Of a DNA stretch of 64,000 nucleotides, positions 1,038-33,968 are shown in pieces. Source of the stretch: Candidatus Omnitrophota bacterium (lineage in GTDB: Bacteria > Omnitrophota > Gorgyraeia > Zapsychrales > JANLHA01); the NCBI GenBank assembly GCA_029560465.1, contig JAKQKX010000063.1, positions 67,796-131,795 on the forward strand, in the 5' to 3' direction. The number at the start of each line of letters is the position of its first letter. The first letter of the stretch is position 1. The position numbers were made by a program, and so were the translations under genes. The notes below the pieces were generated by a model, which was not told the DNA's origin, did not search any database, and was given only the letters and a program-made list of their open reading frames with translations.

Positions 1038-1099
1038 CCCACTTATTCTTGATTTAAAAAATAGGAAAATATTTTTACCTGGAAGAAAGGTTTACGCCC

Positions 1100-3517: not shown

Positions 3518-3556
3518 GAGCGGGTGGGGCTTGTGTGATATTAGAGAAACGCTTTT

Positions 3557-3585
3557 TTGACAAAGTAAAACATGCGTGATAGAAT
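3557..3585 (+). promoter_or_regulatory. near-consensus sigma70 promoter upstream of the ABC binding-protein gene (TTGACA-17-TAGAAT)
   Basis: -35 TTGACA is at 3557..3562 and -10 TAGAAT at 3580..3585, in the 200-bp gap before the ATG at 3721. Confidence 0.5.
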
Positions 3586-3720
3586 ACGCCGTTATCTATT
3601 CTTATATTAAAGACATAATGTTTAATTTAATCATCCCAATGATTTAAAGCTCATCCCCGAAGTCGTCGTTTTCAATATGAATTTGTTCTACTCATTGGGG
3701 CCTCATTTAAAGGAGCGGGT

Positions 3721-5031: not shown

Positions 5032-5053
5032 CTTTTAAACGAAATTAATCATA

Positions 5054-5983: not shown

Positions 5984-5997
5984 AAAGAGGAATACAT

Positions 5998-6870: not shown

Positions 6871-6893
6871 TCAGAACTGGGAGGGTTTTTATT

Positions 6894-9506: not shown

Positions 9507-9534
9507 GGAGATACGGTTGTCCTCAATATAAAAT

Positions 9535-9564
9535 TTGCTAAATAACAGGTAAAAATGCTATAAT
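9535..9564 (+). promoter_or_regulatory. sigma70-like promoter (TTGCTA-18-TATAAT) upstream of the Trp-rich module gene
   Basis: -35 TTGCTA is at 9535..9540 and -10 TATAAT at 9559..9564, in an AT-rich 230-bp gap. Confidence 0.4.
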
Positions 9565-9740
9565 TACTCCATTGTTTTTAGTTTTATAATCTTAATAGGA
9601 GAGGGGGTGTGGAGAACGGATCTAGTTTTTATCACTACTATCTGACCGCAAGGTTAGATTTCCCCGGCAAGAGGCTGGGAACTGATATAAATAATTTATT
9701 TGAAGGAAATTGGGTTTAACAAATTGGAGGTAACTTAGAG

Positions 9741-10601: not shown

Positions 10602-10640
10602 TCCCGTCCGCGGGCCTTTGGTGTTGATCCGTATTTCTTA

Positions 10641-10690
10641 AACAGGATCCTCAAGGGTGTTTCCTCAACTTGAGGATCCTGTTTTTCTTT
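10641..10690 (+). terminator. rho-independent terminator
   Basis: A perfect 15-bp stem (AACAGGATCCTCAAG ... CTTGAGGATCCTGTT) is followed by TTTCTTT, directly after the stop at 10601. Confidence 0.8.
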
Positions 10691-10756
10691 ATCATCCTGC
10701 AGTCAATTTAATATTAGGTTATGGGTGTTGATTTACATGAAAGGGCGAGATGTCTT

Positions 10757-11398
10757 ATGAACAAAATTGTCTTTTTCTGGGGGCTGTGTTTCCTGGTAAT
10801 ATGCGGCTGCAACCGGAGCAGTTCCAGCCTGACATCACAGGGAAATTCGAACCGGAATGTTGAACAGGAAGAAACCAATTTCCAGCCGTTCCTTGTTTAT
10901 AAAGACAAAGGGTCCAGGGGAAATCATTTTGTCCCTTCCGGTTTTATGCCGAACGGGAAATGTATTAATTTTAACGACGCCTGGCAGGAAAATTGTTATG
11001 ACGGCAAAACCTGTATTCGTGTGGAGTATGACGTGGCTTGCTCGAAAGATGATCAGAAATGGGCCGGCATTTATTGGCTGAACCCGGCGAATAACTGGGG
11101 CAGCCGTAAGGGCGGGTTTAACCTCGCGGGCGCCAGGGAGTTGAGCTTTTGGGCCAAGGGCGAAAAAGGCGGCGAACGTATTGAGGAATTCAAGATGGGC
11201 GGGATTACCGGGGATTTTCCGGATTCCGACATGGCGATCATCGGGCCGGTGATCCTGACGAACGAGTGGCGCAAATACACGATCGATTTGAGGGGCCGCG
11301 ATTTGTCTTACGTGAGCGGCGGCTTTTCTTGGTCGACGAATGTCGACGTAAATCCCGACGCCTGCACGTTTTACCTGGATAATATCCAATATCAATAG
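10757..11398 (+). CDS. lipoprotein with a possible carbohydrate-binding-module-like beta-sandwich domain
   Basis: The internal ATG at 10757 gives the lipobox FLVICGC. The body is rich in aromatic/Gly/Asn residues (GIYWLNPANNWGSRKGGFNLAGARELSFWAKGEKGGERI), typical of CBM-like folds. Confidence 0.45.
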   Translation: MNKIVFFWGLCFLVICGCNRSSSSLTSQGNSNRNVEQEETNFQPFLVYKDKGSRGNHFVPSGFMPNGKCINFNDAWQENCYDGKTCIRVEYDVACSKDDQKWAGIYWLNPANNWGSRKGGFNLAGARELSFWAKGEKGGERIEEFKMGGITGDFPDSDMAIIGPVILTNEWRKYTIDLRGRDLSYVSGGFSWSTNVDVNPDACTFYLDNIQYQ

Positions 11399-11423
11399 TA
11401 GTCGCTATTCACGGTCTTTATGA

Positions 11424-11456
11424 AGGGGGGGCGGGTTACCGTTCCCCCGTTTTTTT
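11424..11456 (+). terminator. rho-independent terminator
   Basis: The GGGGGGGCGG ... CCGTTCCCCC stem contains two G-U pairs and is followed by TTTTTTT. Confidence 0.6.
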
Positions 11457-11659
11457 GTCCCGGCAGCCCCGCATTGATATCACGAACCCGCCGCTGTCGT
11501 CGCTCGACTTGCCCGCCCGGCGAGCCCCTCCTTAAAAATCGAAAGGGCTCTCCGAGAGTTGTTCTTCTTTGCATTTTGTTTCTTTTTTTCTTGTACTCCC
11601 TTATATCCTTTGTTATATTCATATCAAGCTTATAAATATTATTATCATAAGGAGATGAT

Positions 11660-12982
11660 ATGTCGAGAGCTGCAAAGTCTATTTTAGTGTTTTTGCTCTT
11701 ATTGCTTTTTGTCTCCGTCGGAGTACTGACGTATGTCGCTTTTCAGAAGCAAGAGTCCGATAAATCAAAATTATCCCTGGAAAAGCAGATGGATGATTTT
11801 CAGCAGAGGGAGAAAAAATATATCCTTGAGAATAAAGATTTGCAGGAGAAGTTGAAGGATGTTGAAAAGAAGAAAGCCGAACTTGAAGAACGCTTGAGTT
11901 CTTTTGGCGGTGATATGGAGTCCCTCAACAAGCAGATCGCGGATTTAACCAGTGAACGGGAAGTTTTGCAGGAAAAAATCGCGGAGCTGGAAAAGGAACG
12001 GAACACCTTATTGACCAGGGTTAAAGAAAAGCCGGAGCCGCAGATTGTTTATAAATACGTGGACCGGGAAACCGGCGCGCCGGTGGAGTCCCCGGGGGCG
12101 GCCTCTCCCGCGGCGGGGAAGAAGCCGGAAGAACCGGTGATCAGCAAAGAAATCCCGGCGGTGAGGGTTCCGGAGATATCTCCTGACAACGAAACATATT
12201 GGGCTCAGGTCATCCGGGAAAAAACTTCCCTTGAGCTGGAGGTGAACACTTTAAAAAAGAAATTGGATGCCAATATGCTCGAACTGGAAGCCTTAAAAAA
12301 ATCCAATTCCGACTTGGAATTAGAAATCGCCGAGTTAGCGAATACCAAAGATTCCATCGAGAGAGAGATCAAACATGGCAAAGATCTGGCGGATAATTTG
12401 TCTTTGGCTTTAGCACGGGCGGAGAATGATAAGGAATTCTTAAACGGCCGGTTTGCAAAACTCAACGATGAAAATTCATCCTTGAGGGTCCAGATTAAAG
12501 ATTTGACATCAACCAAGATCGCCCTGGAAAAAAGTATTGTCCGCTTGCAGGATGAGAAGAAGGACGTGGAGCGGAAATTGATGGAAACCGAGCATGTCAT
12601 TCAAAACCGCATTGATGAAATCTGGCAGATTAAGGACAGCCTAGAGAAGAATTTTCAGATGTCCGGAGCCTCGTCAAAGGCGGTCGAGTTGCCGCCAATT
12701 GTTGTTTCTGGCGCTGGAGAAACGTCGACAAGGGCCGCCCCGGAGGTTATTTTGACCGTCCCGGGGTTTAACGGCAACATCGTTTCTGTGAATGATGAAA
12801 ATAATTTTGTTATCGTTGATTTAGGGCAGAATGATGGCATCAAGCTTGGGGATAACATGAGCGTTTACCGGGGCGCGGAATATGTCGCGGCCCTGGAAGT
12901 GATCCAGGTGCGCAAAGATATAGCCGCCGCGGACATTAAAAACAAAGTCACCACAATCCGTGTCGGTGACGCCGTACGATAA
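11660..12982 (+). CDS. membrane-anchored long coiled-coil protein with a C-terminal beta-rich (SAF/FlgA-like) domain
   Basis: An N-terminal TM helix is followed by ~300 aa of heptad-repeat K/E/L-rich sequence. The C-terminus reads NIVSVNDENNFVIVDLGQNDGIKLGDNMSVY. Confidence 0.5.
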   Translation: MSRAAKSILVFLLLLLFVSVGVLTYVAFQKQESDKSKLSLEKQMDDFQQREKKYILENKDLQEKLKDVEKKKAELEERLSSFGGDMESLNKQIADLTSEREVLQEKIAELEKERNTLLTRVKEKPEPQIVYKYVDRETGAPVESPGAASPAAGKKPEEPVISKEIPAVRVPEISPDNETYWAQVIREKTSLELEVNTLKKKLDANMLELEALKKSNSDLELEIAELANTKDSIEREIKHGKDLADNLSLALARAENDKEFLNGRFAKLNDENSSLRVQIKDLTSTKIALEKSIVRLQDEKKDVERKLMETEHVIQNRIDEIWQIKDSLEKNFQMSGASSKAVELPPIVVSGAGETSTRAAPEVILTVPGFNGNIVSVNDENNFVIVDLGQNDGIKLGDNMSVYRGAEYVAALEVIQVRKDIAAADIKNKVTTIRVGDAVR

Positions 12983-12993
12983 TTCAGGACAAC

Positions 12994-13998
12994 GTGACCA
13001 GGAAACGTAAAGTCAGCATAGAGGATGTCGCCCGCCGCGCCAAGGTTTCCATTACAACCGTTTCGCGTGTTATCAACAATGTTCCCACCGTCAGCCAGCA
13101 AAATCGTTCTAAAGTTGAAGAAGCGATCACCGCTTTGAAATATAAGCCGGATGTCAGCGCCCAGCGTTTGGCCAGCGGCACCAATAATGCCATCGGCTTG
13201 GTCATGCCCGGCTATCCGGGGATTTTTTATTCTTTTTACGCCATCGAAATTATCCGGGGGGTGGGGCATGCCTGTGAGACCCTGCGCCTGGATTTGGTGT
13301 TTCATATCACCAACGGGTTTAATCCGCTGAATACTAATAGCGTTGGAGGCGTCATTTTTGCCGATATCATTGAGAACCGGAAACAGGTTGAAGAAGCGTT
13401 ATCCGCCGATATACCTTGCATGGTCATTAATAATGTCGTGGATGACCTGGATGTGAATTATATCGGGATCGATAACGTCGCCGGAGGCCGTATTGCCGCC
13501 GATTATCTTGTCAGCCTGGGGCACCAGCGTGTCGCTATGATTACCGGAAAATTACAGACACAAGCCGGGTTTCAGCGCTTTGAAGGTTTTCAGCAGGGGC
13601 TTCAGAAGGAAAACATAGCTTTGAAGGATGAATATGTGGTTGAGGGGGATTATTCCCGCCGCAGCGCCCGGAATGCGACGGAGAAACTTCTCGCGCTTCC
13701 TCAGCCGCCGACCGCTATATTTGCGGCAAGCGATGATATGGCTTTGGAGGTCATTACCGTGATACAGGAAAGAGGGATGAAGGTCCCTGATGATATTTCG
13801 GTGATCGGGTTTGACGATAATCCCGCCAGCCTTTATGGCGCTATTGCTTTGACCACGATCCGGCAGTCTTTGTTCCAGATGGCCGAATACGCCGTGAAAT
13901 ACCTGCAGAACATAATGTCCGGGAAAAAGAAATCCGCTGTCCAGATGGTTTTAACTCCGCAGCTTGTTGTCCGCGATTCCTGCCGTGCCCTGAAGTAG
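12994..13998 (+). CDS. LacI-family transcriptional regulator
   Basis: GTG start. The N-terminal HTH (VSIEDVARRAKVSITTVSRVINN) is followed by a periplasmic-binding-fold sugar sensor domain. Confidence 0.85.
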   Translation: MTRKRKVSIEDVARRAKVSITTVSRVINNVPTVSQQNRSKVEEAITALKYKPDVSAQRLASGTNNAIGLVMPGYPGIFYSFYAIEIIRGVGHACETLRLDLVFHITNGFNPLNTNSVGGVIFADIIENRKQVEEALSADIPCMVINNVVDDLDVNYIGIDNVAGGRIAADYLVSLGHQRVAMITGKLQTQAGFQRFEGFQQGLQKENIALKDEYVVEGDYSRRSARNATEKLLALPQPPTAIFAASDDMALEVITVIQERGMKVPDDISVIGFDDNPASLYGAIALTTIRQSLFQMAEYAVKYLQNIMSGKKKSAVQMVLTPQLVVRDSCRALK

Positions 13999-23847: not shown

Positions 23848-24240
23848 ATGATTAATTTTGACATTACATTTAAACCAGGCGTGCCGATTTACGAACAGGT
23901 CATTTTCGCTGTGAAAAAATCTATCGTTGCCGGCCACCTGAAGCCGGGAGACCGGTTCCCCTCGGTTCGCGAAATGAGCCGGGAATTGCGCATTAATCCT
24001 AATACGGCGCAGAAAGTGGTTTCTCACCTGGTGAATGAACGGTTGCTTCAGGTAAAACCCGGGATCGGCAGTGTTGTATCAGAGTTAAGCCTGGCGAACC
24101 AGGAACAGAGGGGGGAAGTTCTTCAGAACGAAGTTGAACGGCTCGTTGTGGAAGCCAAGCGGCTTTCCATTGCCAAAAAGGAGCTGCTGGACGCGGTTCA
24201 GCGCCAGTGGGACAATAACAACACGAAAGAGACGCTATGA
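23848..24240 (+). CDS. GntR-family (YtrA-like, short) transcriptional regulator
   Basis: A winged-HTH N-terminus (IYEQVIFAVKKSIVAGHLKPGDRFPSVREMSRELRINPNTAQKV) in a 130-aa protein. Confidence 0.8.
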   Translation: MINFDITFKPGVPIYEQVIFAVKKSIVAGHLKPGDRFPSVREMSRELRINPNTAQKVVSHLVNERLLQVKPGIGSVVSELSLANQEQRGEVLQNEVERLVVEAKRLSIAKKELLDAVQRQWDNNNTKETL

Positions 24241-25145
24241 AGACCGTTATAGAAACCAGAAGCTTAACGAAGAAATTCGGAGCTAAAACCATTTTGGCGC
24301 AAATTGATCTGGATGTGCCGGCAGGAAGCATTTACGCGTATTTGGGGCCGAACGGGGCCGGAAAGACGACCACCATCAAAACCATGGTCAATATCCTGCG
24401 GCCGACCAGGGGCACAGTAAAAATTTTGGGGGTGGATTCCACGGCTCTGGACGCGAAAGAGTTTCGGCAGATCGGGTATGTTTCGGAAAATCAGGTGCTG
24501 CCGGAAGGGATGACGGCAAACGCGCTTTTTGATTATTGCCGGCCCATGTACCCACAGTGGGATGAAGGATTCTGCCAGTCTTTGACCCGGCAGTTTGACC
24601 TCCCTTGTGATGAACCCATTGAGAAATTATCCCGGGGCATGAAAATGAAAGCGGCGCTCATTGCGTCTTTGGCCTATCGTCCTAAGCTGCTGATCTTAGA
24701 TGAGCCTTTCAGCGGCCTGGATCCGGTGGCACGCAAGGATTTGATGGACGGGATCATGGAATTGACCGGAACGGAGGAGTGGACGATTTTTATATCATCG
24801 CATGATATAGAGGAAGTGGAACACTTGGCGGACTGGGTCGGGTTTCTGCATAAAGGGCAGTTGAAACTAAGCGAAACCACCGAATCCCTGCAAGCCCGGT
24901 TTAAAAGGATCAATATTACCCTGAAAAACCCGCTGGAATCGGAGGTGCCTTTTCCTGCGAACTGGCTGTTGCCCCAGCAGGAGGGCCGGTTTCTGTGTTT
25001 TGTGGACAATTCTTTCCAGCCCGGGGAGAGCGAAAAGCAGTACAGAAAAGGATTGCCGGCGGTTTCCACGATTGAAATCCAGGGGATGTCTCTGAAAGAA
25101 ATATTTTTGATTCAGGCCAGGCAGTTAAAAATGTTGAATATATAG
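24237..25145 (+). CDS. ABC transporter ATP-binding protein with a C-terminal extension
   Basis: Walker A (GPNGAGKTT), the signature LSRGMKMK and Walker B (LLILDEP) are present. Start and stop overlap the neighbouring genes. Confidence 0.85.
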   Translation: MKTVIETRSLTKKFGAKTILAQIDLDVPAGSIYAYLGPNGAGKTTTIKTMVNILRPTRGTVKILGVDSTALDAKEFRQIGYVSENQVLPEGMTANALFDYCRPMYPQWDEGFCQSLTRQFDLPCDEPIEKLSRGMKMKAALIASLAYRPKLLILDEPFSGLDPVARKDLMDGIMELTGTEEWTIFISSHDIEEVEHLADWVGFLHKGQLKLSETTESLQARFKRINITLKNPLESEVPFPANWLLPQQEGRFLCFVDNSFQPGESEKQYRKGLPAVSTIEIQGMSLKEIFLIQARQLKMLNI

Positions 25146-25156
25146 GAGAAAAACAT

Positions 25157-26815
25157 ATGCCACATGCGTATTTAGTCTTTGAGAAAGATCTCAGGCAATT
25201 TCGTTTGATCCTGTTGTCGTGGTTGGGCGCTGTCGGTGTAACCCACGGGGTCGCCTTGCTCGGAGGGATGTTGCTAAATACCCATTTTATGTTCAGGATC
25301 ACGCAACCCCTGGTTTTACAATGGCTGTCGGCCTTGCAGGCAGTCTTGATTCTTATCTTTGTGCCGTTGATTGTCCAGTCCGATCCGATGGTTGGGACAA
25401 CAGCGTTTTGGTTAACCCGTCCGATTTCCCGCCTTTCTCTCCTCCGGGCGAAGGCCGTGCTTGTGGGAAGCGTCTTTGTCGGGATCCCGTTGTTGCTGGA
25501 GATCGCGGTCCTGGCGCTCAACGGGCTTGCCTGGAAAGATGTTTTACCGGCGGCCTTGCTGATCGCGCTGGAAAAAAGCGCTTTTATCGTTCCGGTTTTC
25601 TTGGTGGCCAGCCTCACGGGAAAATTTCATGAATTTTTTATAGCGGGGATAGCCGCGGTTTTAGGGTGTGTTGCCGCATGGACTCTTCTTCCTGCCTTGG
25701 TCCCGGGGTTGTGCTTCAGCGGGGCCCCGGGGACGGCGTTGGGATCACTTCAACAGCAAATGTTAATTGTTTTTGTGAGCGTGCTTTTGATAGGCCATCA
25801 GTATAAAACCCGTCGGACACAAAGGACGATTGTGGGTGTCTTGGCCGGGGCGCTGTTCATCCCTTGGGCCCTGTGTGTCCTGCCGCAGGGCGTGTTGCAA
25901 CAGGAGGTCTGCCGGATTAACCCGCCGCAGGTGGTCATTCAGACAGGCCAGGCCGTGGTTGCCGAGGATATGGTTTCCGGGAACCGCCTGGCACGGGACC
26001 GCATCGTGTCGATTCCAATCCACGTGCGTGGGCTTCGCTCCGGCCAATTCGCCGTGCTCCTCCGGGTATCCGGCCCATTGATCGCTTATGGCCCGGATGT
26101 TCAACTCCGTTCTTCCGGGCCTTTAAGGTCTCCTGCCGTATTGCTCTCGAGTCGCGAGTTACAGGATCCGATCCAGCATGCCCTTAAAGATTTTATCGTG
26201 ATGAATCCTTATCAGGGGGCCGACAACAGGTATCCTGTTTTTCGGCTGCCGGAAACAGTGTACGATCAATATCAGAAACAGAGCGGGGTATACGAGGGCT
26301 TGGGGGCGTTTGATATTTATGAGTACCGGATTGGGGCGAGGATGCCTTTGGTCCGCGGGGCTAAACGTTTTTCGGGGAGGACGGAAAGCGTTGTTCTTGA
26401 TGTCATTGAAAAGCCTTCCGGGGTCGCAGTGATTGTTGGAGAAAAGACCCTGAATGTGTCCTCGGCCTTCTCGAAGGGGGGGGCTCCTGCCGGAGGCGAT
26501 ACGTCCTTAGATTTTTCCGGGACGTATGTGTTGGTCCATCCTGGGCGCAAGGAAGCGTTTTTGGTTGATATCCTTGATCAGCCGGGGATAAGAATAGACC
26601 TGGCTTGGCCGGTAAGGGCGGACCGGCTGGGTTTTAAGGTTAAGCGGTATGATTTTCCCGGGCTTAACGTCGGTGGGTCTGTTACCGGTGTTCAGAAGTC
26701 ATGGCTGAAGGAGGCGGAACTGATCCGTTTGGAGGCACGGGAACTCGGTGTTTTTGAGAGAAACTTGCGTTTTTCCGATTTTGTCCTTCCTGAAGTCGGG
26801 GAGTTAAGAAAGTGA
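25157..26815 (+). CDS. ABC-2-like membrane permease fused to a large (~330 aa) extracytoplasmic domain of unknown function
   Basis: Six N-terminal TM helices are followed by a soluble domain with no motif I recognise. The arrangement is GntR-ATPase-permease. Confidence 0.5.
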   Translation: MPHAYLVFEKDLRQFRLILLSWLGAVGVTHGVALLGGMLLNTHFMFRITQPLVLQWLSALQAVLILIFVPLIVQSDPMVGTTAFWLTRPISRLSLLRAKAVLVGSVFVGIPLLLEIAVLALNGLAWKDVLPAALLIALEKSAFIVPVFLVASLTGKFHEFFIAGIAAVLGCVAAWTLLPALVPGLCFSGAPGTALGSLQQQMLIVFVSVLLIGHQYKTRRTQRTIVGVLAGALFIPWALCVLPQGVLQQEVCRINPPQVVIQTGQAVVAEDMVSGNRLARDRIVSIPIHVRGLRSGQFAVLLRVSGPLIAYGPDVQLRSSGPLRSPAVLLSSRELQDPIQHALKDFIVMNPYQGADNRYPVFRLPETVYDQYQKQSGVYEGLGAFDIYEYRIGARMPLVRGAKRFSGRTESVVLDVIEKPSGVAVIVGEKTLNVSSAFSKGGAPAGGDTSLDFSGTYVLVHPGRKEAFLVDILDQPGIRIDLAWPVRADRLGFKVKRYDFPGLNVGGSVTGVQKSWLKEAELIRLEARELGVFERNLRFSDFVLPEVGELRK

Positions 26816-26883: not shown

Positions 26884-28890
26884 ATGATTATGAATAACGG
26901 AGTCAAACGGGTTTCTGCGGTGGTTATATTAGGGAGTGTCCTGCTCTGGACGGCCTGGGCGTACGCATACCAGCATGTCAGGATGGAAGGATATCAGCTG
27001 GTCACTGATTACGATCAGGACGGGACATACACGCCTTTTTTTGTCAAGGGGGTCGGGTACAACGCTATCCCCACCGGGGCTTTCCCGAGTGAATACGGAA
27101 TATGTTGGTATAAAGGCATTATTAACGGAAAACCCCAATTCGACTGCCCGGGGGTTCAAGAATATGAAGACCCGGTGATGATGGAAAGGGACCTGGCTAT
27201 TATCAAATCCATGAACGCCAACACAATCCGGACCTGGGGCAAGGTGACGCCGCAGTTGATGGATCAGGCCCAGGCTATGGGATTGAAGGTTATCGCCGGC
27301 TATTGGCTGGATCATAATCTGGATTTTATGAAGAGGGACCTCTCCGGCGTGGAGAAGGATTTTCTGCAGTATGTCCGGGCTTTTAAGGATCATCCGGCGC
27401 TCTTGATGTGGGTCGTGGGGTATCAGAATGAAACAGACCTTTGTAATTTCCAGGGAGCTCAAAGCGATTGCAGCCGGGCGGAGCAGGCCAAGGCCTATTA
27501 TGATTTTGTGAATGCTTTGGCCCGCCAGATCAAGACGCTGGAGGGGGATTCTTTTCATCCCGTGATGATGATCTCCGCGGACCTGGGGGATATCGGCCAG
27601 ATTGCGACCGATGAAAGGCTGAAGGACGTTGATATTCACGGATGCAATGTTTACCGGGGGCCGGACTTCAGTAATTTCTTTGAGTTGTACGCCAACCGTT
27701 CGGCCAAGCCGCTTTTGATTTCGGAATTCGGTTCAGACGCGTGGTTTGTTTTGGACGGTAAACGGCCGGAGAAAGGGGTTGAGAGGCAGGATCTCCAGGC
27801 TTCTTTCCTGGCTGAAGAGTGGGATACTTTGCTGAAATATTCGGGTGGGCGCGGCGGGTTTGTTCTGGGCGGGGTTGTCTCCCCTTTTGCCGACAGCTGG
27901 TGGCAGTATAAAGGCGAGTGGTCGCCCACATGCGCGACGCATGACCGTAATTATATCGTCGGTTTTTATTCCGGACCGGACGGGTTTACTAACCCGGAGT
28001 GGTTCGGCCTCGTGGCCTTGAAACGCCCGGAGGAAGGCCAAAAGTACGACTGGGTTAAGCCCAGGCTCGCCTATACCGTCATGCAGCAGAAATTTACGGA
28101 CCGGCCTCCGGAGCGGCCTTGGCAGGGTTTTGGCAAAGGGACGCTGAGGACGGACGTGTCCTGGAATTACACCGCCGGGTATCATTTTACGCCCCTTCAA
28201 CCGGGGCAGGTTACTCAACTGGGCGGCTTGTTTAACGGGACCAAAATGGTGTCCCTGTGGAACAAGACGACGGGGGTGCTGCTGGCGAAGGCGAAGGTGG
28301 CGTCGGCCAACACGTGGTCTTACAGTGATATCTCTCCGGTAGAGGTTATTCCGAGTTACACGTATACCGTCGCGGTGACATTGGACGGGAGCGGGGGCAG
28401 CCACACCTATGATATCCCCGCCCTGCCGCTGACATGCGGGGATATTCGGATCGAAGGTTCGACATTCGCTTACGGAAGTGCCCGGCCGGTTTCGACAGTG
28501 TTGCCGCAGATGTACGGGCAGGCTGATATTAATTTTGTCCCTCAACGGAAAGGGAACAACCGCGCGCCGATTCTCCTTTCTTCACCGGTGATTTCTCCGC
28601 GCTCCATCTCGGAGAATAAGAAGGGGACGCTGACGGTGCAAGCCAAAGATGAAGACGGGGACACTTTGGTTTACCGGTGGCTCCCCAGTGTCGGGAGCAT
28701 TGAGGGCGACGGGCCCCAGGTGACGTATATCCCGCCGGATGTCTCAGAAAAGACGTTGGAAAACGTCGTCAGCCTTATCAGCGACGGCCGGGGGGGGATT
28801 GTATACGGGAATGTCCTTTTTGAAGTTTTTCCGGTATTTGATCAAACGGCCCCGGAGGAGACAACGAGCCATGAAACGACAGGTCTTTAA
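26884..28890 (+). CDS. secreted GH72-like clan GH-A enzyme (paralog 2) with a DUF4082-like and Ig/PKD-like C-terminal extension
   Basis: A signal peptide is followed by FFVKGVGYNAIP, DLAIIKSMNANTIRTWGKV, LMWVVGYQNETD, VDIHGCNVYRGPDF and LISEFGSDAWF. These are collinear with the 30144..31382 and 6894..9506 proteins. Confidence 0.7.
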   Translation: MIMNNGVKRVSAVVILGSVLLWTAWAYAYQHVRMEGYQLVTDYDQDGTYTPFFVKGVGYNAIPTGAFPSEYGICWYKGIINGKPQFDCPGVQEYEDPVMMERDLAIIKSMNANTIRTWGKVTPQLMDQAQAMGLKVIAGYWLDHNLDFMKRDLSGVEKDFLQYVRAFKDHPALLMWVVGYQNETDLCNFQGAQSDCSRAEQAKAYYDFVNALARQIKTLEGDSFHPVMMISADLGDIGQIATDERLKDVDIHGCNVYRGPDFSNFFELYANRSAKPLLISEFGSDAWFVLDGKRPEKGVERQDLQASFLAEEWDTLLKYSGGRGGFVLGGVVSPFADSWWQYKGEWSPTCATHDRNYIVGFYSGPDGFTNPEWFGLVALKRPEEGQKYDWVKPRLAYTVMQQKFTDRPPERPWQGFGKGTLRTDVSWNYTAGYHFTPLQPGQVTQLGGLFNGTKMVSLWNKTTGVLLAKAKVASANTWSYSDISPVEVIPSYTYTVAVTLDGSGGSHTYDIPALPLTCGDIRIEGSTFAYGSARPVSTVLPQMYGQADINFVPQRKGNNRAPILLSSPVISPRSISENKKGTLTVQAKDEDGDTLVYRWLPSVGSIEGDGPQVTYIPPDVSEKTLENVVSLISDGRGGIVYGNVLFEVFPVFDQTAPEETTSHETTGL

Positions 28891-29914
28891 AATGGGTGTT
28901 TTGTGTGCGGCGCTTCTGGCGTGGCCGGACTCGGCCGCCGGAGATACGTTTTACCTGCGGTCCGGGAGAATTATTGAAGGAACGGTTGTCGAAGAAACGG
29001 ACGATGCCTTGAAAATTAAGACCGAACGGAGGATTTTCTCCCTGCAGAAGCGCCTGATCCAGAGGGTGGAAACATCGAGCCCCGTCGTCACCAAAGTCGG
29101 CACACGGAACCCCTATCCTTCCCGCGCGCCCCAACCGGGAAGCCCGGGAAGGCCGTTTACGCCGGTTGACATTGAAATCCTCTCGGAAGGGCATACCCTT
29201 TCGCCCGCCGTTCGGGAAGAGATCGTGTATGTGATCTCCAAGATGTTCGTGGTTTTCGAAGATGTGTTGGGCCTTGATTTTAACCGGGAGCGCATGTTCA
29301 AAGCCCGCGTCTTCGGGGATTTCGCCGCGTATCAATCCTATCAGGCACAGGTATCGACGTCCCGGTCGGACACGGGCTTTTATTCAATACAAAATAAAGA
29401 AATGGTCCTCTGGAAAAATGACAGCGGCCGTAAAATGTTGCGTATCCTTTATCACGAAGCCAGCCGCGCGATTTTGCACAGACAAATCCCACGGTGTCCG
29501 CCTTGGATCGACGAGGGATTAGCGGAGTTTTTTGAGTATGGGGCCATGGAAGAGGATTCTGTGGTCGTGCAGCCGCAGATGCACAAGGATGAACGGGTGA
29601 AAGCATGGCTGCGGGCTGGAACGCTTATGCCTCTGGAACCGTATCTCCGTTTGCCGGACGCGGAATGGCGGCAGCGCAATGAACGGCAGGACGCCCCGAT
29701 GAGCACCATGGCCTGGTCCCTGATAACGTTTTTACTGTCAACGGAAAAAGGCCGGGCCGCATTTTCCGGGGTGGTCCATGAACTCAGGCGGTTTAATCAT
29801 AAGAATTTTCCAAGTTACCGGGCGATCGAGCATTATTATCCGGGGGGGCTTAAGGCAATGGAGGCGGAATGGCGCGCCTGGATTCCGCGGCCGAGAAAAG
29901 AGAGCAGCTTTTGA
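28871..29914 (+). CDS. secreted protein, DUF1570-like putative peptidase-type domain with an N-terminal beta-hairpin motif
   Basis: I chose the ATG at 28871 (MKRQVFKMGVLCAALLAWPDSAAG) because it gives a clean signal peptide. The product has a conserved LYHEASRAILH segment. Its N-terminal motif TFYLRSGRIIEGTVVEETDDALKIKT is shared with the 343..903 protein. Confidence 0.45.
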   Translation: MKRQVFKMGVLCAALLAWPDSAAGDTFYLRSGRIIEGTVVEETDDALKIKTERRIFSLQKRLIQRVETSSPVVTKVGTRNPYPSRAPQPGSPGRPFTPVDIEILSEGHTLSPAVREEIVYVISKMFVVFEDVLGLDFNRERMFKARVFGDFAAYQSYQAQVSTSRSDTGFYSIQNKEMVLWKNDSGRKMLRILYHEASRAILHRQIPRCPPWIDEGLAEFFEYGAMEEDSVVVQPQMHKDERVKAWLRAGTLMPLEPYLRLPDAEWRQRNERQDAPMSTMAWSLITFLLSTEKGRAAFSGVVHELRRFNHKNFPSYRAIEHYYPGGLKAMEAEWRAWIPRPRKESSF

Positions 29915-30143
29915 TCAGCGTTTGGCTGTTGTTCTGAAGAAAAAAACGGCGTGCGGGCGGCCACCCACACACCGTAAGTAACCCGAGGATAGCATAGGAG
30001 CCAGTCCTCAGTCCTGTGTTGCGTTCTTAGTATAGCAAGGCACTGTCTCCTTGGCAATCGTCATCTTAAAGGAGGTGGTGCTTTTTTTATGGCCGGGAGG
30101 GAATTTTGACGGGAACCAGGTTAAAACTTGAAAGGAGGATAAT

Positions 30144-31382
30144 ATGAACAGGACAGGGATCAAATACGGGCTGGCGACGGGGGTCATCATGGCGGTTATC
30201 CTGTTAGGGATTTCACCTTGTTGGGCGTATCCTTATGTCAGGGTGGACGGGCGGCGATTATTGACGGATTTTGACCGGGACGGGCGGTATGAGCCGTTTC
30301 TTGTGAAAGGGATGGGGTATTCCAACACCCCGATCGGGTCGTTCCCGTCCCAGTACGGGTTATGCTGGTACCGCGGCACGTCCGACGGGCAGCCGCAGTT
30401 TGAATGCCCAGGGGATCAGGAGTATGACAATCCGCTTCTTCTGGACCAGGACCTTCCGTTGATTAAAGACATGAATGCCAACACGATTCGGACTTGGGGG
30501 AAGGTCACGCCGGAACTTCTTAAGAAAGCTAATGAGCTGGGGCTGAAGGTCATTGCCGGTTACTGGATTCCTCATCAGCTGGATTATGTGAACGGGGACC
30601 TGGCCGCGTTGGAGAAGGACATCCTTGACTATGTCGCGGAATTCAAGGATGACCCGGCGATTTTAATGTGGGGAATTTCCAACGAGAATGAAGTGGCCTT
30701 TTGCACCTTCAAAGATGCGGGCCCCTCTTGCCGGCGGGAGGATCAGGCGGCCGCTTTTTACAAGCTTATGAATACGATTGCCCGTAAAATCAAGGAGCTG
30801 GAAGGGGAGTCGTTTCATCCGGTGATGATGGTTTCCGCTGACCTCGGGGACATCGGGGTCCATGCGGGGGATGAGGCGCTGCCTGACGTGGATGTCCACG
30901 GATGCAATGTTTATCGCGGCGGGGACTTCGGCCCCAAAGCGAACAATTTCTTCCAGCAGTATGAAAAGCGCTCCCGAAAACCGGTTTTAATCACCGAATT
31001 CGGAACGGACGCCTGGTTTGTCCTGGGAGCGGATCACCCGGAGAGAGGGAAAGAACGGCCGGACATGCAGGCTAAGTATATCGCGGAGTCTTGGGACACG
31101 ATTATGGCGTATCACGTGACCCGTGGCGGGCCGAACATCGGCGGCGTGGTGTTTCAGTATGCCGATGGATGGTGGAAATATAAAGGGGATTGGGATCCTT
31201 CTGCGGCCACGCATGATTGCGGATATACGCCGGATGTTCACGCGGGGCCGGACGGGTACATGAATGAAGAATGGTTTGGGGTGATGGCTTTGGAGCCGAA
31301 TCCTGTTCCTGGGCAACTGGACATCCTGCACCCTCGGCCGGCGTATGACGTGATCAAGGAAAAGTTTGCCGGCGAGCTTTAA
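30144..31382 (+). CDS. secreted GH72-like clan GH-A enzyme (paralog 3, catalytic domain only)
   Basis: A 412-aa product with a signal peptide. The motif series is FLVKGMGYSN, CPGDQEYDNPLLLDQDLPLIKDMNANTIRTWGKV, LMWGISNENEV, VDVHGCNVYRGGDF and LITEFGTDAW. It parallels yeast Gas1: [44 protein letters not shown] and FFSEYGCN. Confidence 0.7.
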   Translation: MNRTGIKYGLATGVIMAVILLGISPCWAYPYVRVDGRRLLTDFDRDGRYEPFLVKGMGYSNTPIGSFPSQYGLCWYRGTSDGQPQFECPGDQEYDNPLLLDQDLPLIKDMNANTIRTWGKVTPELLKKANELGLKVIAGYWIPHQLDYVNGDLAALEKDILDYVAEFKDDPAILMWGISNENEVAFCTFKDAGPSCRREDQAAAFYKLMNTIARKIKELEGESFHPVMMVSADLGDIGVHAGDEALPDVDVHGCNVYRGGDFGPKANNFFQQYEKRSRKPVLITEFGTDAWFVLGADHPERGKERPDMQAKYIAESWDTIMAYHVTRGGPNIGGVVFQYADGWWKYKGDWDPSAATHDCGYTPDVHAGPDGYMNEEWFGVMALEPNPVPGQLDILHPRPAYDVIKEKFAGEL

Positions 31383-31446
31383 ATCCGGGGCCGGTCTGTT
31401 TAAAACAAGAAGGGTTCTGGTCAGAAACATTAAACGAGAGGAGATC

Positions 31447-31911
31447 ATGATGAAACGGTATTTAATTCTTTTAACGGCCGTGTTGGGTTTGTTTGCCGTA
31501 TCGACGGCCGCGCTGGCGCTGGATTTCGGTGATTATAAATCATCCACGCTCACGGCCAAAGCCTGGGGCGCGCTGAACAGCAAAGATTACAAGGAAGCGA
31601 TTATTTACACGGACAAATGCATTGAACTGTATTCGGATAAAGCTCGGGAGATGCAGGCTAAGATGAACGAATACCCGTCCGGGGCGACGGAGGAGATTCA
31701 CACGAATTACTGGGCGCTGAACGACGTGGCGACAAGTTTGTTCATAAAAGGGAAAGCTTTGCTTGAGCTGGGCCAGGAAGACCAAGCGAAGGATGTTTTT
31801 AAAACATTGATCGGGGAATTTACATACGGTCAATGCTGGGACCCGAATGGGCCGTGGTTCTGGGCTCCGGCCAGGGCGGCGAAAGATCAGTTGCTGGTCT
31901 TGGAAGGGTAG
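31447..31911 (+). CDS. secreted single-copy Trp-rich helical module protein
   Basis: The ATG at 31447 has a GAGAGGAG RBS. After a signal peptide the protein reads LDFGDYKSSTLTAKAW...TYGQCWDPNGPWFWAPARAAKDQL, which is the same module as in 9741..10601. Confidence 0.7.
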   Translation: MMKRYLILLTAVLGLFAVSTAALALDFGDYKSSTLTAKAWGALNSKDYKEAIIYTDKCIELYSDKAREMQAKMNEYPSGATEEIHTNYWALNDVATSLFIKGKALLELGQEDQAKDVFKTLIGEFTYGQCWDPNGPWFWAPARAAKDQLLVLEG

Positions 31912-31991: not shown

Positions 31992-33968
31992 TTATGGCCC
32001 AGTGCCGTATCGTTTTATAAAATCCTCGAAATACGCCGCCACGGATGAGTTCCCGGGATACCGGCTCCGGGCCTCTTTTAACAGGGCTTCCGCCTCCTGT
32101 CCATAATGGTCTTTTTCGAGCATATGGATTAACTGAAGATATGTCCGCGGATCAGGATGGCGTTCCAGCAGTCCTTGAACAGCCCAACGATATTGTTCCA
32201 CGTTATTTTGTTTTAAATACAGCACCATCAGCCGGGTTTTTATATAAAACAGCTGGGTTGTATCCGGGTTTAATGTCAGGGCGGCTTCATAATGTTGGAT
32301 GGCTTTTTTATCTTCTCCCGAGGAACGATAAATATCAGCCAAATTTAATCTGGGGGAAAAGGATCGCGGGGCTTGTTTTATAGCTGCCAGAAAATCCTGT
32401 TGTGCAGTTTGGATGTCCCCTTCCTTAAGGTGGATGACACCGAGATTATTGAACAAATATGGCGAAGAAAAGCCTTCCTGCCGGGCCTGTGCGATCACTT
32501 CCTCCGCCTGCGCGTAATCCCCTTTTAAAGTTAAAAATGTGGCCAGGTTTTCGTATGTTCGGGGAACGCAATGATGGCCCAGCTTTAATGCGCGCCGCGC
32601 GAGATCCACCGCCTGGTCCAGCCGGCCTTCATCAGCGTAGAGCTTAGATAGGGTTATTAAAGGGATGAGGTTCTCGGGGCAAACTTTCAACCAATATTCA
32701 CAGTAACTTTTTTCTGACCTGGCTATCAAATGGTACGTCTGCGTCCAGAAAATAAAATACAGCGCCAGGAATCCCAAACACGCGTGTTTCACGAAAGGCC
32801 TTAATTTGTCAAGGACCCGGATAATCCCCGACGCGAAAAGCAAGAATAGCCCAATACTCGAAAAATACATCCAATGGGATTCAATCACCATCCCCATATA
32901 AGCATGGGTCAAACTGGCGGGAAAGACAAAAAGGCAGCCGATGCCAAACCATGCGATGGCCGGGGCGGTTATGCCCTTAGACGGTCTGTGGGTTAAGAAT
33001 AAGAAAAAGATCAATACAAGCGCGGCGAGACCGTTCCACATCCAAACACCTTGACGCATCAGAGGTACGTTGTAAATAAAGACAATTCCTTCCGGGTAAA
33101 TGAACCGTGAGATATACTGAAATATTAACTGGGTTATGGCGGCCAGATAGCTCGGGAAGGGGGGAGAAAGCAGGAGGATCCTTTGCATAAAATTTGATTC
33201 TCCCCGGCACAACCTTAGCCAGATGAACAGGTCTATCAATGAAAGGGTGAAAAAAGGAAGAAGGAATTTGACGTGAGATGCCCGGTGGTTTTTATTAATC
33301 AATTTTATAAAAATTAAAAGATAGAGGGGAAAAATGGCTGCGGCTTCAAAAAACAGGAGTCCGCAGAGAAAGGATAAAAGCCCCGCGAAGTAGTATCCCG
33401 GCTTTTTCACGGCGCTTGTCATATATTTCCAAACACATAATAAACTCGCTTGCAAGAACAGCGCGTAAAAAAACACAAAGCCGGCACTGGGCATATGGAT
33501 ATAAAACGCGTGAATGGGGTGGACGGCAAATAAGGCGGAAGCGAGAAACGCCGTTCTCCGGTCACGCGTGATAATGCCGATGAGTTTAAAGAATAAAAGC
33601 ACGTTCGCAAGAAACGCCAGCCAGATGAAGAACCGCAGCAAATGCGGGCGTGATTGAAAGCGGTGAAATAAGAACATGTTTGTCGAATAATAAAGAGGGG
33701 CGTAATGGTGCGTCTTAGGTGGGACTTGAATGAAAAAGTCTTGGGGCGTTTGAAAGACCGCCTGGTATTTCCGATCCAGAAAGTTATAATCATCAATTAA
33801 AAATTCATTGGAAAAACTGGGGGCATAAGAAAAGAAAGAAAGGGCGATCAGCAAAAGCGCCATCCCTTTCCAGGAGCACAGGGCCTGCCGTAATTTTTCA
33901 CCGATGTCCTTCATCACAGGCTTCATGGATATCCTTTTTATAAGACAAATTTTATGATAGGGTAACAC
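31992..33968 (-). CDS. TMTC/PMT_2-like multi-pass membrane protein with C-terminal TPR repeats (putative protein O-glycosyltransferase family)
   Basis: About 11 TM helices include an FSNEFLIDD motif of the NxFxxDD type. Around five C-terminal TPR repeats follow. The start may be one of the internal ATGs (MKPVMKD). Confidence 0.55.
   Translation of the reverse strand: MLPYHKICLIKRISMKPVMKDIGEKLRQALCSWKGMALLLIALSFFSYAPSFSNEFLIDDYNFLDRKYQAVFQTPQDFFIQVPPKTHHYAPLYYSTNMFLFHRFQSRPHLLRFFIWLAFLANVLLFFKLIGIITRDRRTAFLASALFAVHPIHAFYIHMPSAGFVFFYALFLQASLLCVWKYMTSAVKKPGYYFAGLLSFLCGLLFFEAAAIFPLYLLIFIKLINKNHRASHVKFLLPFFTLSLIDLFIWLRLCRGESNFMQRILLLSPPFPSYLAAITQLIFQYISRFIYPEGIVFIYNVPLMRQGVWMWNGLAALVLIFFLFLTHRPSKGITAPAIAWFGIGCLFVFPASLTHAYMGMVIESHWMYFSSIGLFLLFASGIIRVLDKLRPFVKHACLGFLALYFIFWTQTYHLIARSEKSYCEYWLKVCPENLIPLITLSKLYADEGRLDQAVDLARRALKLGHHCVPRTYENLATFLTLKGDYAQAEEVIAQARQEGFSSPYLFNNLGVIHLKEGDIQTAQQDFLAAIKQAPRSFSPRLNLADIYRSSGEDKKAIQHYEAALTLNPDTTQLFYIKTRLMVLYLKQNNVEQYRWAVQGLLERHPDPRTYLQLIHMLEKDHYGQEAEALLKEARSRYPGNSSVAAYFEDFIKRYGTGP

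Follow-up and report, generated by a model that had tools for sequence, protein, structure and literature searches.

The window analysed here is a 64,000-nucleotide stretch of DNA from an uncultured Omnitrophota bacterium. It carries four open reading frames on the + strand, referred to as genes A (26884–28890), B (28871–29914), C (30144–31382) and D (31447–31911). The frames lie where the preliminary description placed them. A and C encode related glycoside hydrolases (GH), B a DUF1570-like protein, and D a small helical module previously described as a Trp module. The A-B-C-D order was kept in the related Omnitrophota assemblies L001, L002, L012 and L013, and the B-C-D order in L092. The synteny with D genes put forward in the preliminary description thus extends to at least five related assemblies, and its view of the cluster as paralogous to a first sub-locus also held, with GH and D paralogues located at 6894–9506 and 9741–10601. 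Signal peptides of all four proteins were judged by eye, and on this basis the cluster proteins may be extracellular.

Gene C encodes 412 residues comprising a signal peptide and a clan GH-A barrel, bare of extra domains as described earlier. The acid/base dyad is Asn180-Glu181 (Glu at nt 30684–30686, + strand) and the nucleophile is Glu285 (nt 30996–30998); of A and C, only C retains both catalytic glutamates. The paralogues had been called GH72-like, but by profile and fold their nearest relatives are GH158, GH157 and then GH2. The Pfam scan gave no GH72 match for A or C at E < 0.1, and GH72 was absent among the 60 listed sequence/profile matches and the best 50 fold matches. Weak PF03198 matches occurred in 4 of the 32 GH family members (best 2e-5), and several Bacteroidota homologues carry precomputed ones. 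The GH family profile matched GH158(Pro) at 2e-21, BuGH158 (6PAL) at 9e-18 and GH157 at 1e-15, followed by GH2, and the A barrel was most similar in Foldseek to the LaGH157 laminaritriose complex (3e-18), with GH158 next. In C, the catalytic motifs line up with the acid/base and nucleophile of GH158 and with E224 of LaGH157. Both GH157 and GH158 are endo-β-1,3-glucanases (PMC10229575, PMC13195107). Moreover, Bacteroidota homologues with ~30% identity, some of them fused to GH16, lie in laminarin-type loci of the order SusC/SusD-GH16-[family GH]-GH17-GH30-MFS. On the basis of homology (roughly 15–25% identity) and the intact catalytic residues, we infer that C would be a working hydrolase, namely a retaining clan GH-A endo-glucanase related to GH157/GH158. 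The low identity to characterised GH157/GH158 enzymes, and GH158 alignments that span only β2–β7, count against the glucanase reading.

The 668-residue product of gene A comprises a signal peptide, a clan GH-A (β/α)8 barrel (residues ~30–405, nt 26971–28098, + strand), a DUF4082-like β sandwich (residues 427–502, nt 28162–28389) and an Ig-like Big_9 domain (residues 546–648, nt 28519–28827). The 258 residues past the barrel agree with the ~250 extra residues first noted. With this tail scanned alone, DUF4082 matched residues 428–508 at E 1.2e-4 (22.5 bits, short of the cut-off of 28.4) and Big_9 matched residues 560–644 at E 1e-5 (26.7 bits, exceeding the cut-off of 23.6), and one family member in the GH alignment reached DUF4082 at 4.2e-8. 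The AF2 model also contains two β domains in the C-terminal part, in agreement with the succession of domains initially proposed. As the same architecture (643–666 residues) recurs in independent assemblies, the C-terminal domains are not a product of misassembly.

A and C are 55% identical (tblastn E 1e-146 to 1e-150), and in the neighbour-joining tree, a phylogeny that the preliminary description had called for, they fall into two sister clades, with four genomes contributing orthologues to each. The A barrel retains the nucleophile Glu281 (nt 27724–27726) and the NTIR, NVYRG, DxWW, HD and EWFG motifs. In A and all of its orthologues, however, Tyr-Gln (Tyr180-Gln181 in A, nt 27421–27426) replaces the Asn-Glu acid/base dyad, so that A probably either lacks hydrolytic activity or has a changed mechanism. 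Glu183, two residues downstream of the lost position, could conceivably act as a substitute acid/base; GH158 also has Glu at the matching +2 position, where it is not the acid/base. A second, independent inactive GH paralogue adjoins an intact one in L031/L034, which suggests that inactive copies are functional partners.

Gene B (347 residues) encodes a signal peptide, an N-terminal small β domain that matches NCBIfam Lepto_7_Nterm (E 5.7e-9, under that family's cut-off) and a zincin-type region resembling DUF1570. Its ATG at 28871 lies 20 nt inside A, as noted before, and the start Met is shared by the orthologues. The DUF1570 match of B (E 5e-4, 20.8 bits) falls slightly below the 22-bit cut-off; all six B homologues found, orthologues of which some are named "DUF1570 domain-containing" by NCBI, match at E ≤ 0.01 (best 1.4e-6). 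The H-E segment considered conserved in the preliminary description turned out to vary: the HEXXH motif reads HEASH in four orthologues, with acidic residues ~16–23 positions downstream of the second His, HEASR in the window (residues 195–199, nt 29453–29467, + strand) and NEASR in others. Of the putative DUF1570-like peptidase, therefore, the weak family match stands, whereas the zinc motif is degenerate in this genome. The search by sequence found no PDB relative of B, and we know of no DUF1570 protein with known function. B is probably a DUF1570 zincin-like accessory protein, with a metal site decaying in this sub-clade, and would be non-proteolytic here.

The gap between B and C holds a strongly conserved block (29935–30090, − strand), a candidate ~85-nt antisense small RNA. 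It comprises a sigma-70-like promoter (30057–30029), a hairpin and a 13-bp terminator hairpin (29975–29946) with U7 after it. Read on the + strand, the right end of the block (30038–30088) could terminate the A-B transcript.

The features of A and B raise the question of whether the four genes form one system at all. C-D might be the functional unit, with A and B drifting toward function loss and held together only by the recent common ancestry of the few carrier genomes. Consistent with such drift, A lacks the acid/base residue, the HEXXH histidines of B are lost stepwise from HEASH through HEASR to NEASR, B is confined to close relatives, and the + strand terminator-like hairpin and antisense RNA candidate part A-B from C-D. 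We nevertheless regard this explanation as unlikely: A and B are full-length and free of frameshifts in genomes whose proteins differ by 13–46%, A retains the other barrel motifs and two extra domains, the set of GH, D, Ig and DUF4082 is fused in one polypeptide (P0241), and the inactive paralogue of L031/L034, also next to an intact one, arose independently.

Gene D, after C as described earlier, encodes 154 residues, i.e. a signal peptide and a ~125-residue TPR-like six-helix domain. The domain ends in a Trp-rich β hairpin, GQCWDPxGxWFW, and five of its Trp and two of its Cys are conserved. D carries TPR matches, and its structural matches are generic TPR (best Foldseek E 0.02). TPRs usually bind proteins; the conserved surface of this TPR-derived helical domain is rich in Trp, Asn and Asp. 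D is 46–53% identical to two tandem copies in the frame at 9741–10601 and 25% identical to a copy within an 870-residue protein.

The module has ~1,500 cluster representatives and forms tandem arrays of up to seven. Among 80 D-containing loci sampled from species-representative GTDB genomes, 58 had a family GH within 6 kb on the same strand as D, arranged as a D-GH fusion followed by a 2×D protein, GH then D, D then GH, or GH...D...GH; in some of the other 22, D stood alone among housekeeping genes. Fusions include GH + 4×D + Ig + DUF4082 (P0241), D-GH-D (P0286) and 2×D with a PF11790 glycoside-hydrolase core (P0222); D also occurs in fusions with GT2 synthases, kinases and RHS proteins, and a Chlorohelix plasmid encodes a D-bearing protein in the vicinity of a GH17 gene. 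In the search for the triad of GH, D and DUF1570, the GH-D pairing proved widespread, whereas the full triad occurred in 2 of the 80 loci and only in close relatives. Judging from neighbourhood and fusions, D, the conserved partner module of the GH family, most likely binds the glucan or anchors the enzyme on a surface that carries glycans. The generic TPR matches, the loci with D among housekeeping genes and the fusions to GT2 synthases, kinases and RHS proteins count against the glucan-capture reading. The module is found with such enzymes in several phyla and is not known to have been characterised.

The first sub-locus provides the metabolic context. Its paralogue P1 (6894–9506, + strand, 870 residues) joins a D-like module (nt 7206–7655) to an intact GH barrel (nt 8397–9503), a third GH paralogue with 26–30% identity to A/C; such a D-GH fusion is the predominant arrangement across Omnitrophota. 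A 286-residue protein with two tandem D modules follows (9741–10601, + strand), and a GH94 phosphorylase, an ABC sugar importer and LacI are encoded in the sub-locus as well, as found beside the fusion gene in L008. The cultured Lentisphaera marina has a GH3-GH1-GH-D run. The earlier proposal of a dedicated glycan-processing system rather than a stray hydrolase therefore holds in part: synteny and the widespread GH-D pairing exclude the stray hydrolase, whereas the GH94/ABC/LacI genes, the Lentisphaera GH3 and GH1 and the Bacteroidota laminarin-type loci favour catabolism over glycan processing. The four-gene cluster probably captures and cuts β-1,3-glucan outside the cytoplasm, and we give a probability of about 0.55 to its being a catabolic β-glucan capture and hydrolysis set and not a glycan-remodelling system. 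Against a joint pathway, the two sub-loci are linked by co-occurrence in one genome only. We must also note that the GH94 resembles cellobiose phosphorylase (1e-147) much more strongly than laminaribiose phosphorylase (5e-43), so the true substrate could be a β-1,4 or mixed-linkage glucan.

Polysaccharide export and biosynthesis genes adjoin the D-GH pair in L009 and L014, which counts against catabolism. It bears on an alternative view, in line with the glycan processing proposed in the preliminary description, in which the cluster would remodel or process glucan that the cell itself has made, outside the cell or in the periplasm. The GH would then trim self-made β-glucan and D would be a periplasmic TPR scaffold as in the BcsC, AlgK and PelB systems, while the flanking genes would act in export or glycosylation. 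Those flanks include, as described, a GntR-ABC module upstream on the strand of A-D (23848–26815), consisting of a short GntR regulator (23848–24240), an ABC ATPase (24237–25145) and a 552-residue membrane protein without a family match (25157–26815); synteny of this module is limited to L001 and L002. Convergently downstream (31992–33968, − strand) lies a 658-residue polytopic membrane protein with C-terminal TPRs. Its earlier reading as a TMTC-like O-glycosyltransferase survives as architecture only: the family scans gave no PMT/TMTC or glycosyltransferase match, and the protein is at the matching position in L001 but absent there in L002. Both points speak against the own-glucan model. The own-glucan model also draws on the Bac_transf, Poly_export, Wzz and epimerase genes adjoining the D-GH pair in L009/L010/L014, and on P0234, which joins GH and 2×D to a GT2 cellulose-synthase-like domain. 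GH94 with a sugar ABC importer and LacI is, however, the predominant Omnitrophota context, the Lentisphaera and Bacteroidota contexts agree with it, and the window ORFs scanned near the two sub-loci included no glucan synthase. Remodelling of self-made glucan is thus doubtful, though the least improbable of the alternatives.

Omnitrophota have been proposed to live as epibionts or predators, and another possible role of the cluster is attack on other cells: the glucanase and D would bind and breach the glucan-containing envelope of prey or host, such as the walls of fungi or algae or curdlan-like capsules of bacteria. RHS-repeat proteins and giant proteins of 1,939–5,953 residues carry D modules, and in L009 the pair adjoins a 1,746-residue DUF2341 protein and pseudopilins. 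Giant genes of predatory bacteria, Omnitrophota included, are reported to be tied to cell-wall degradation (bioRxiv 10.1101/2023.11.21.568195). On the other hand, the adjacent genes for import and phosphorolysis are a sign of nutrition, the window ORFs scanned near the two sub-loci included neither secretion-system nor toxin genes, and the ~3.3 Mb genome of the lineage seems to us large for an Omnitrophota species that depends on a host. A weapon is accordingly the least probable of the explanations considered.

Under the catabolic reading, the cluster would be a lineage-specific elaboration of a secreted β-glucan capture-and-hydrolysis set, with β-1,3-glucan of the laminarin or curdlan type as the most likely substrate. 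All four proteins would be exported by Sec-type signal peptides, C would cut the glucan, and D would hold it or anchor the enzyme. A, apparently an old duplicate of C that kept the nucleophile, lost the acid/base dyad and has two β domains missing from C, would bind or present glucan without hydrolysis, or act by altered chemistry, with B as a probably non-proteolytic accessory. Import and phosphorolysis of the products would presumably fall to the ABC importer and GH94 enzyme encoded 20 kb away in the first sub-locus.

Among known systems, GH157 (LaGH157 from Labilibaculum antarcticum, PDB 9FZ9/9G4N/9G5G; BcellWH2_01931) is the best structural match to the A barrel, and relatives are found in β-glucan utilisation loci (PMC10229575). 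The alignment of LaGH157 with C covers residues 80–346, including the nucleophile motif TEFG and a DGWWK motif downstream. LaGH157 differs in having only about 15% identity to the A barrel (Foldseek), a length of 537 residues and extra domains; the Omnitrophota enzymes have their own Cys-containing insertion after β4 and a D partner instead of SusC/D. GH158, a family of endo/processive β-1,3-glucanases (BuGH158, PDB 6PAL; GH158(Pro), PDB 9ORO), is the best sequence/profile match (single sequence, 9e-11), its acid/base NE and nucleophile TEFG motifs align, and it uses the retaining clan GH-A mechanism predicted for C. In GH158, a C-terminal eight-stranded Ig-like domain packs on the barrel (PMC13195107). 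C lacks this domain, A carries extra domains of different kinds, and A has Gln in place of GH158 Glu143.

The fungal GH72 β-1,3-glucanosyltransferases (Gas/Gel) likewise combine a clan GH-A barrel with β-1,3-glucan, but their Cys-rich CBM43 domain and eukaryotic GPI context are missing from the Omnitrophota enzymes. The MA-clan-like peptidase family DUF1570 (PF07607) is matched by the B orthologues, whereas B of the window, with HEASR, stays below the Pfam cut-off. D resembles the SusD-like and surface glycan-binding proteins of Bacteroidota in being non-catalytic and encoded beside an endo-glucanase. A TPR scaffold likewise underlies SusD-like proteins; D matched SusD neither in sequence nor significantly in fold, and is only ~125 residues long, often in tandem arrays and often fused to the enzyme. 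Finally, A is comparable to inactive glycosidase-fold proteins such as the GH18 chi-lectins and the GH1-like KL domains of Klotho, in which the fold is kept and a catalytic carboxylate is lost; A belongs to a different family and similarly keeps the fold and most motifs without one catalytic carboxylate.

The second sub-locus, from an uncultured Candidatus Omnitrophota bacterium, consisted of four open reading frames on the plus strand, whose boundaries in the preliminary description held: gene A (26884-28890, 668 aa), gene B (28871-29914, 347 aa counted from the Met common to its orthologues, with a 20-nt overlap with A), gene C (30144-31382, 412 aa), and gene D (31447-31911, 154 aa), which encodes the Trp module. 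The N-termini of all four products, read by eye, were typical Sec signal peptides. The C protein was identical to HPN57387.1, which shares a 90% cluster with HOY10540.1, and the D protein was identical to HOY10541.1. The glycosidase paralogues A and C shared 55% identity (E about 1e-148), and both were 26-30% identical to the C-terminal part of the 870-aa product of ORF 6894-9506 in the first sub-locus, here P1, in which a D-like module is fused to a glycosidase barrel. D was 46-53% identical to the two tandem copies in ORF 9741-10601 (the double-D protein) and 25% identical to the copy within P1. Judging from these sequences, neither set of similarities is a matter of chance.

The cluster is real and conserved among close relatives. 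A short GntR regulator, an ABC ATPase and a 552-aa membrane protein (23848-26815, plus strand) preceded A, and the order from GntR through D was kept at L001 and L002, loci in two assemblies of ~3.35 Mb; A-B-C-D was kept at L012 and L013, and B-C-D at L092. Neighbour joining of 72 barrel domains placed A and C in sister clades, each with orthologues from L001, L002, L012 and L013. Their outgroup was a single gene with a D gene before it (L009/L014), and P1 fell in a separate large clade of D-glycosidase fusion proteins. This topology, which carries no branch support, dates the A/C duplication as older than the small A/C clade and younger than the split from the L014 lineage. More remotely related A/C-type glycosidases of Omnitrophota (L003, L005, L006) stood alone amid housekeeping genes, with neither D nor B nearby. 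The GntR-ABC module was adjacent in close relatives only, and by this gene-order evidence we would not count it in the system. The same would apply to the convergent 658-aa membrane protein with C-terminal TPRs downstream of D, which was absent from that position in L002 and showed no glycosyltransferase signature. Its earlier identification as a TMTC-like O-glycosyltransferase is not supported: the N-terminal 423 aa matched neither PMT, PMT_2 nor related models, gave one weak match, to DUF2231, and had no detectable relative in the PDB, so that the likeness to TMTC is confined to the membrane-plus-TPR architecture. The sole above-threshold Rfam match in the window was a tRNA gene at 63025-63097.

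A and C had been labelled GH72-like, which is appropriate as a distant resemblance only. Neither protein matched PF03198 (GH72) at E < 0.1, and in Pfam both gave weak Glyco_hydro_2_C matches only; among 32 family members, Glyco_hydro_2_C was found in 24 and PF03198, weakly, in four (best 2e-5). Compared with PDB sequences, C matched GH158(Pro) first (9e-11) and then a 537-aa protein (1e-8), identified through Foldseek as the Labilibaculum antarcticum GH157 whose structure includes laminaritriose. The GH158 match was significant but partial (residues 110-289 of C), and phmmer aligned C with LaGH157 across 267 residues (1e-8). The family profile ranked GH158 (2e-21), BuGH158 (9e-18) and GH157 (1e-15) first among PDB entries, followed by GH2 enzymes. 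For the AF2 model of A (pLDDT 75, with most of the barrel > 85), the best Foldseek match was GH157 (3e-18, TM 0.5 per target, ~15% identity), followed by GH158 and GH2. GH72 structures were absent from the profile matches listed and from the best 50 Foldseek matches. The nearest homologues outside Omnitrophota, at ~30% identity, belonged to Bacteroidota; some were fused to GH16, and their loci were of the laminarin type, with SusC, SusD, GH16, the homologue of this glycosidase, GH17, GH30, and MFS genes. On the evidence of PDB profiles, fold, and Bacteroidota loci, the family of A, C and P1 is best placed in clan GH-A, as a barrel related to GH157 and GH158, both endo-β-1,3-glucanases (PMC10229575; PMC13195107), so that the A/C-type enzymes add new members to a kind already known. 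GH72 membership was ruled out, given the missing PF03198 match and the GH157, GH158 and GH2 identity of the nearest solved structures. GH158 differs from both paralogues in having a C-terminal eight-stranded Ig-like domain after the barrel, whereas C is a bare barrel and A instead carries DUF4082-like and Big_9 domains beyond a disordered linker. A literature search on 9FZ9 and LaGH157 returned nothing.

In C and P1, a (β/α)8 barrel was accompanied by an acid/base Glu after β4 and a nucleophile Glu on β7, as expected of clan GH-A. The corresponding motifs were S-N-E181 and T-E285-FG in C, and GNE and TEYG in P1; almost all of the 72 domains had such motifs, and the GH158 catalytic residues, by PDB chain numbering, coincided with the aligned GNE and TEFG motifs. 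By analogy with the laminarin-type PULs of the Bacteroidota homologues, C is predicted to have endo-β-1,3-glucanase activity. The assumption that both paralogues are enzymes was overstated, as A has Tyr-Gln instead of the Asn-Glu dyad. In A and its orthologues (L001, L002, L012, L013, P0005, P0006, P0009) the segment reads G-Y180-Q181-N-E, and both MAFFT and HMMER aligned Q181 on the GH158 acid/base Glu; the acid/base site reads Y-E in P0007 and Y-Q-N-A in P0008. A retains the nucleophile E281 and the NTIR, NVYRG, DxWW, HD and EWFG motifs. In the AF2 model, a strand formed by residues 173-179 lies ahead of positions 180-181, and the strand 277-282 contains E281. Exchange of Glu for Gln at this position, combined with loss of the preceding Asn, is the classical crippling of a retaining glycosidase; A therefore probably either serves as a binding protein or uses an altered chemistry. 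Another Omnitrophota lineage has, by its motifs, a second and independent active/inactive pair: at L031 (687-1817) and L034 (682-1812), a paralogue with GNANN and ITSYG has lost both glutamates; its distance to a D gene is ~4 kb, and an intact paralogue is found ~6 kb away.

The C-terminal extension of A had been described correctly as a DUF4082-like domain followed by an Ig domain. When the last 258 aa were scanned alone, Big_9 (PF17963) scored 26.7 bits, above its threshold of 23.6, and DUF4082 (PF13313) scored 22.5 bits, below its threshold of 28.4; DUF4082 reached 4.2e-8 in one family member of alignment A3 and had precomputed matches in P0008 and P0009. The AF2 model contained a β sandwich at residues 427-502 and an Ig-like domain, also a β sandwich, at 546-648. 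Misassembly of this region was ruled out because the architecture recurs in independent assemblies, in the orthologues at L001, L002, L012 and L013 and in additional proteins from metagenomes (643-666 aa).

The secreted B protein had been taken for a putative peptidase, which also went too far, since the window copy has HEASR rather than HEXXH. It scored 20.8 bits against DUF1570 (PF07607), below the gathering cut-off of 22; all six B orthologues matched DUF1570 at E ≤ 0.01 (best 1.4e-6), and NCBI names some of them DUF1570 proteins. The true HEXXH form, HEASH, was present in L001, L002, P0171 and P0174, HEASR was shared by the window and L012, and NEASR occurred in L013 and P0172; the trailing His of HEASRAILH was found in the window only. 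Outside this motif the proteins were 55-79% identical over their full length, and the zinc site is, by this comparison, being lost within the sub-clade. No solved relative of B was found. A 215-aa ORF at 256-903, upstream of the GH94 gene of the first sub-locus, gave a weak match to the small N-terminal β domain of B (profile positions 13-74, E 1e-4). The proposal that glycosidase, Trp module and DUF1570-like protein form a triad to be sought in other genomes was not borne out, and its generality was ruled out: no B homologues were detected beyond the six, and B was present at two of the 80 D-containing GTDB loci. The decaying zinc site and the active/inactive glycosidase pairs offer a natural series in which the conversion of enzymes into binding proteins could be studied.

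D scored above the Pfam cut-offs for TPR_8 (27.8; cut-off 25.7) and TPR_2 (27.3; cut-off 27) and also matched TPR_6; the only solved relatives were generic TPR proteins, with weak matches. Its signature comprises DFGDxKSSTLTxKAW, KCxELY, YWALNDVAT and GQCWDPxGWFWKPAEAA; five Trp and two Cys residues are conserved. The AF2 model (pLDDT 88.5) shows six helices and a short hairpin that bears WDP...WFW. A word-indexed search returned 49 relatives and an exhaustive profile search 1,552 cluster representatives, of which 1,023 scored E ≤ 1e-10; the number of tandem copies ranged from one to seven. Species-representative genomes yielded 452 matches, mostly in Omnitrophota; other hosts were the cultured Lentisphaera marina, Lentisphaerales, Auribacterota, and Verrucomicrobiota. 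The Pfam and NCBIfam libraries searched held no dedicated model for D. NCBI names D (HOY10541.1) and relatives (MCD4782155.1) "beta-glucanase precursor", and D has no glycosidase domain.

The partnership between D and the glycosidases is real. A glycosidase of the A/C/P1 family was encoded within 6 kb on the same strand at 58 of the 80 D loci fetched. Because many of these loci are orthologous, the count exaggerates their independence; the range of arrangements and phyla is free of this bias. The predominant arrangement was that of the first sub-locus, a D-glycosidase fusion followed by a double-D protein. The glycosidase preceded D in the window (C-D) and at L070, L011, L067 and L068, followed it at L014 and L047, and lay on both sides of it at L031 and L034. 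In one Omnitrophota MAG (L009, 69-6944 / L014), the D-glycosidase pair had a 1,746-aa DUF2341 protein with pseudopilin-like genes to one side of it and Bac_transf, Poly_export, Wzz, and epimerase genes to the other. In Lentisphaera marina IMCC11369 (L067, NZ_JAQZZL010000002.1), GH3, GH1, the A/C-type glycosidase and D stood in a row at 962-6450, and at 8710-11923 another D gene preceded those for an ECF sigma factor and a Ser/Thr kinase; being cultured, this species is a tractable organism for the glycosidase-D pair. At D loci without such a glycosidase, the double-D gene was often amid unrelated genes, with GH116 nearby in one case; the giant proteins upstream were RHS, subtilase or Maf/ARMT1 fusions and were uninformative.

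Fusion proteins widen this picture. D modules were joined to the glycosidase with Ig and DUF4082 domains (four copies, P0241), flanked it on both sides (P0286), or accompanied a PF11790 glycoside-hydrolase core (two copies, P0222), the glycosidase with a cellulose-synthase-like GT2 (two copies, P0234), a Ser/Thr kinase (two copies, P0289), CHB_HEX_C (four copies, P0204), and RHS (one copy, P0258). D was also seen within giant proteins of 2,981 and 5,953 aa (P0273 and P0319). As the GT2, kinase, RHS, and giant-protein fusions show, the use of D goes well beyond glucanases. On a plasmid of Candidatus Chlorohelix allophototropha (L093, NZ_CP128401.1, 6768-12740), the gene for a 552-aa protein with two D modules at its end lay two genes upstream of that for a 1,115-aa GH17 protein, which brings Chloroflexota and another β-1,3-glucan enzyme family into the association of D with glucanases. 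The obvious alternative for D is a protein adaptor. We infer instead that D behaves like a ligand-binding module, because it occurs with three or four β-glucan enzyme families, in arrays, and as the extracytoplasmic part of a kinase; moreover, its set of conserved Trp, Asn and Asp residues is compatible with a glycan site. Knowing the binding target of D would add a new marker by which glucan users could be recognised among uncultured phyla.

Within the 229-nt spacer between B and C, a block of ~150 nt (29935-30090, read on the minus strand) showed, in each of the six genomes, much higher conservation than the genes beside it, with one copy per locus (L001 ~9593-9753, L002 ~13015-13175, L012 ~4482-4642, L013 ~4481-4641, L092 ~1508-1668). 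No Rfam family matched it, apart from one chance resemblance to a terminator, and a metagenome scan added one locus, giving six sequences, too few for covariation statistics. Folding was better for the minus strand (z = -3.8) than for the plus strand (z = -1.65). The minus strand carries a conserved promoter-like site (TTGCmA-17-TGnTATACT), a hairpin and, at its end, a 13-bp hairpin with U7, a strong intrinsic terminator. Invariant G-U pairs of the terminator stem on the minus strand would be A-C mismatches on the plus strand, and one stem pair varies among G-C, G-U, and A-U across genomes; these pairs point to a minus-strand RNA of ~85 nt. The block thus looks like a candidate antisense small RNA located between A-B and C-D, and its right end could serve as a plus-strand terminator after B.

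Laminarin and other β-1,3-glucans rank with the most abundant glycans of marine and fresh waters. To our knowledge, their use by PVC-group and candidate-phylum bacteria is poorly known. The first sub-locus (1100-13998), syntenic in L008, encodes a GH94 phosphorylase, an ABC sugar-binding protein, two permeases, the 870-aa D-glycosidase fusion, and the double-D protein, followed by a 225-aa unknown protein, a coiled-coil protein, and LacI. Together with the GH3-GH1 run in Lentisphaera and the laminarin-type loci of Bacteroidota, this gene context favours catabolism. C would cut β-glucan outside the cytoplasm, D and probably A would hold the polymer or the enzyme in place, and the products would be imported and then phosphorolysed. 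This catabolic scheme is weakened by the GH94 protein, which is nearest to cellobiose phosphorylase (3QDE, E 1e-147), much closer than to laminaribiose phosphorylase. In some lineages the glycosidase-D set may instead remodel self-made glucan, as suggested by the GT2 fusion and by the one locus where a D-glycosidase pair adjoins exopolysaccharide export genes. The A/C-type family offers a lead to the missing laminarinase of a Lentisphaerota isolate whose growth is restricted to laminarin, which has no GH16 and in which genes annotated as "GH2" are induced (PMC13526803), because Pfam flags the family as Glyco_hydro_2_C and because its neighbours in Lentisphaera marina are GH3, GH1 and D.

What is new in the cluster is the D module, the pairing of active and inactive glycosidases, and the small RNA candidate. 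We give roughly a one-in-four chance to a reading that joins them: D would represent a new, widespread class of β-1,3-glucan-binding module, an all-helical, TPR-derived CBM rather than a β sandwich; A would be a glycosidase-derived lectin that, with D and the active C, forms a glucan-harvesting complex in Omnitrophota and other PVC bacteria; and this complex would be under the control of the antisense small RNA in the B-C spacer. As part of the same tentative reading, the A/C/D apparatus would be analogous to the Sus-type utilisome of Bacteroidota and evolutionarily unrelated to it.
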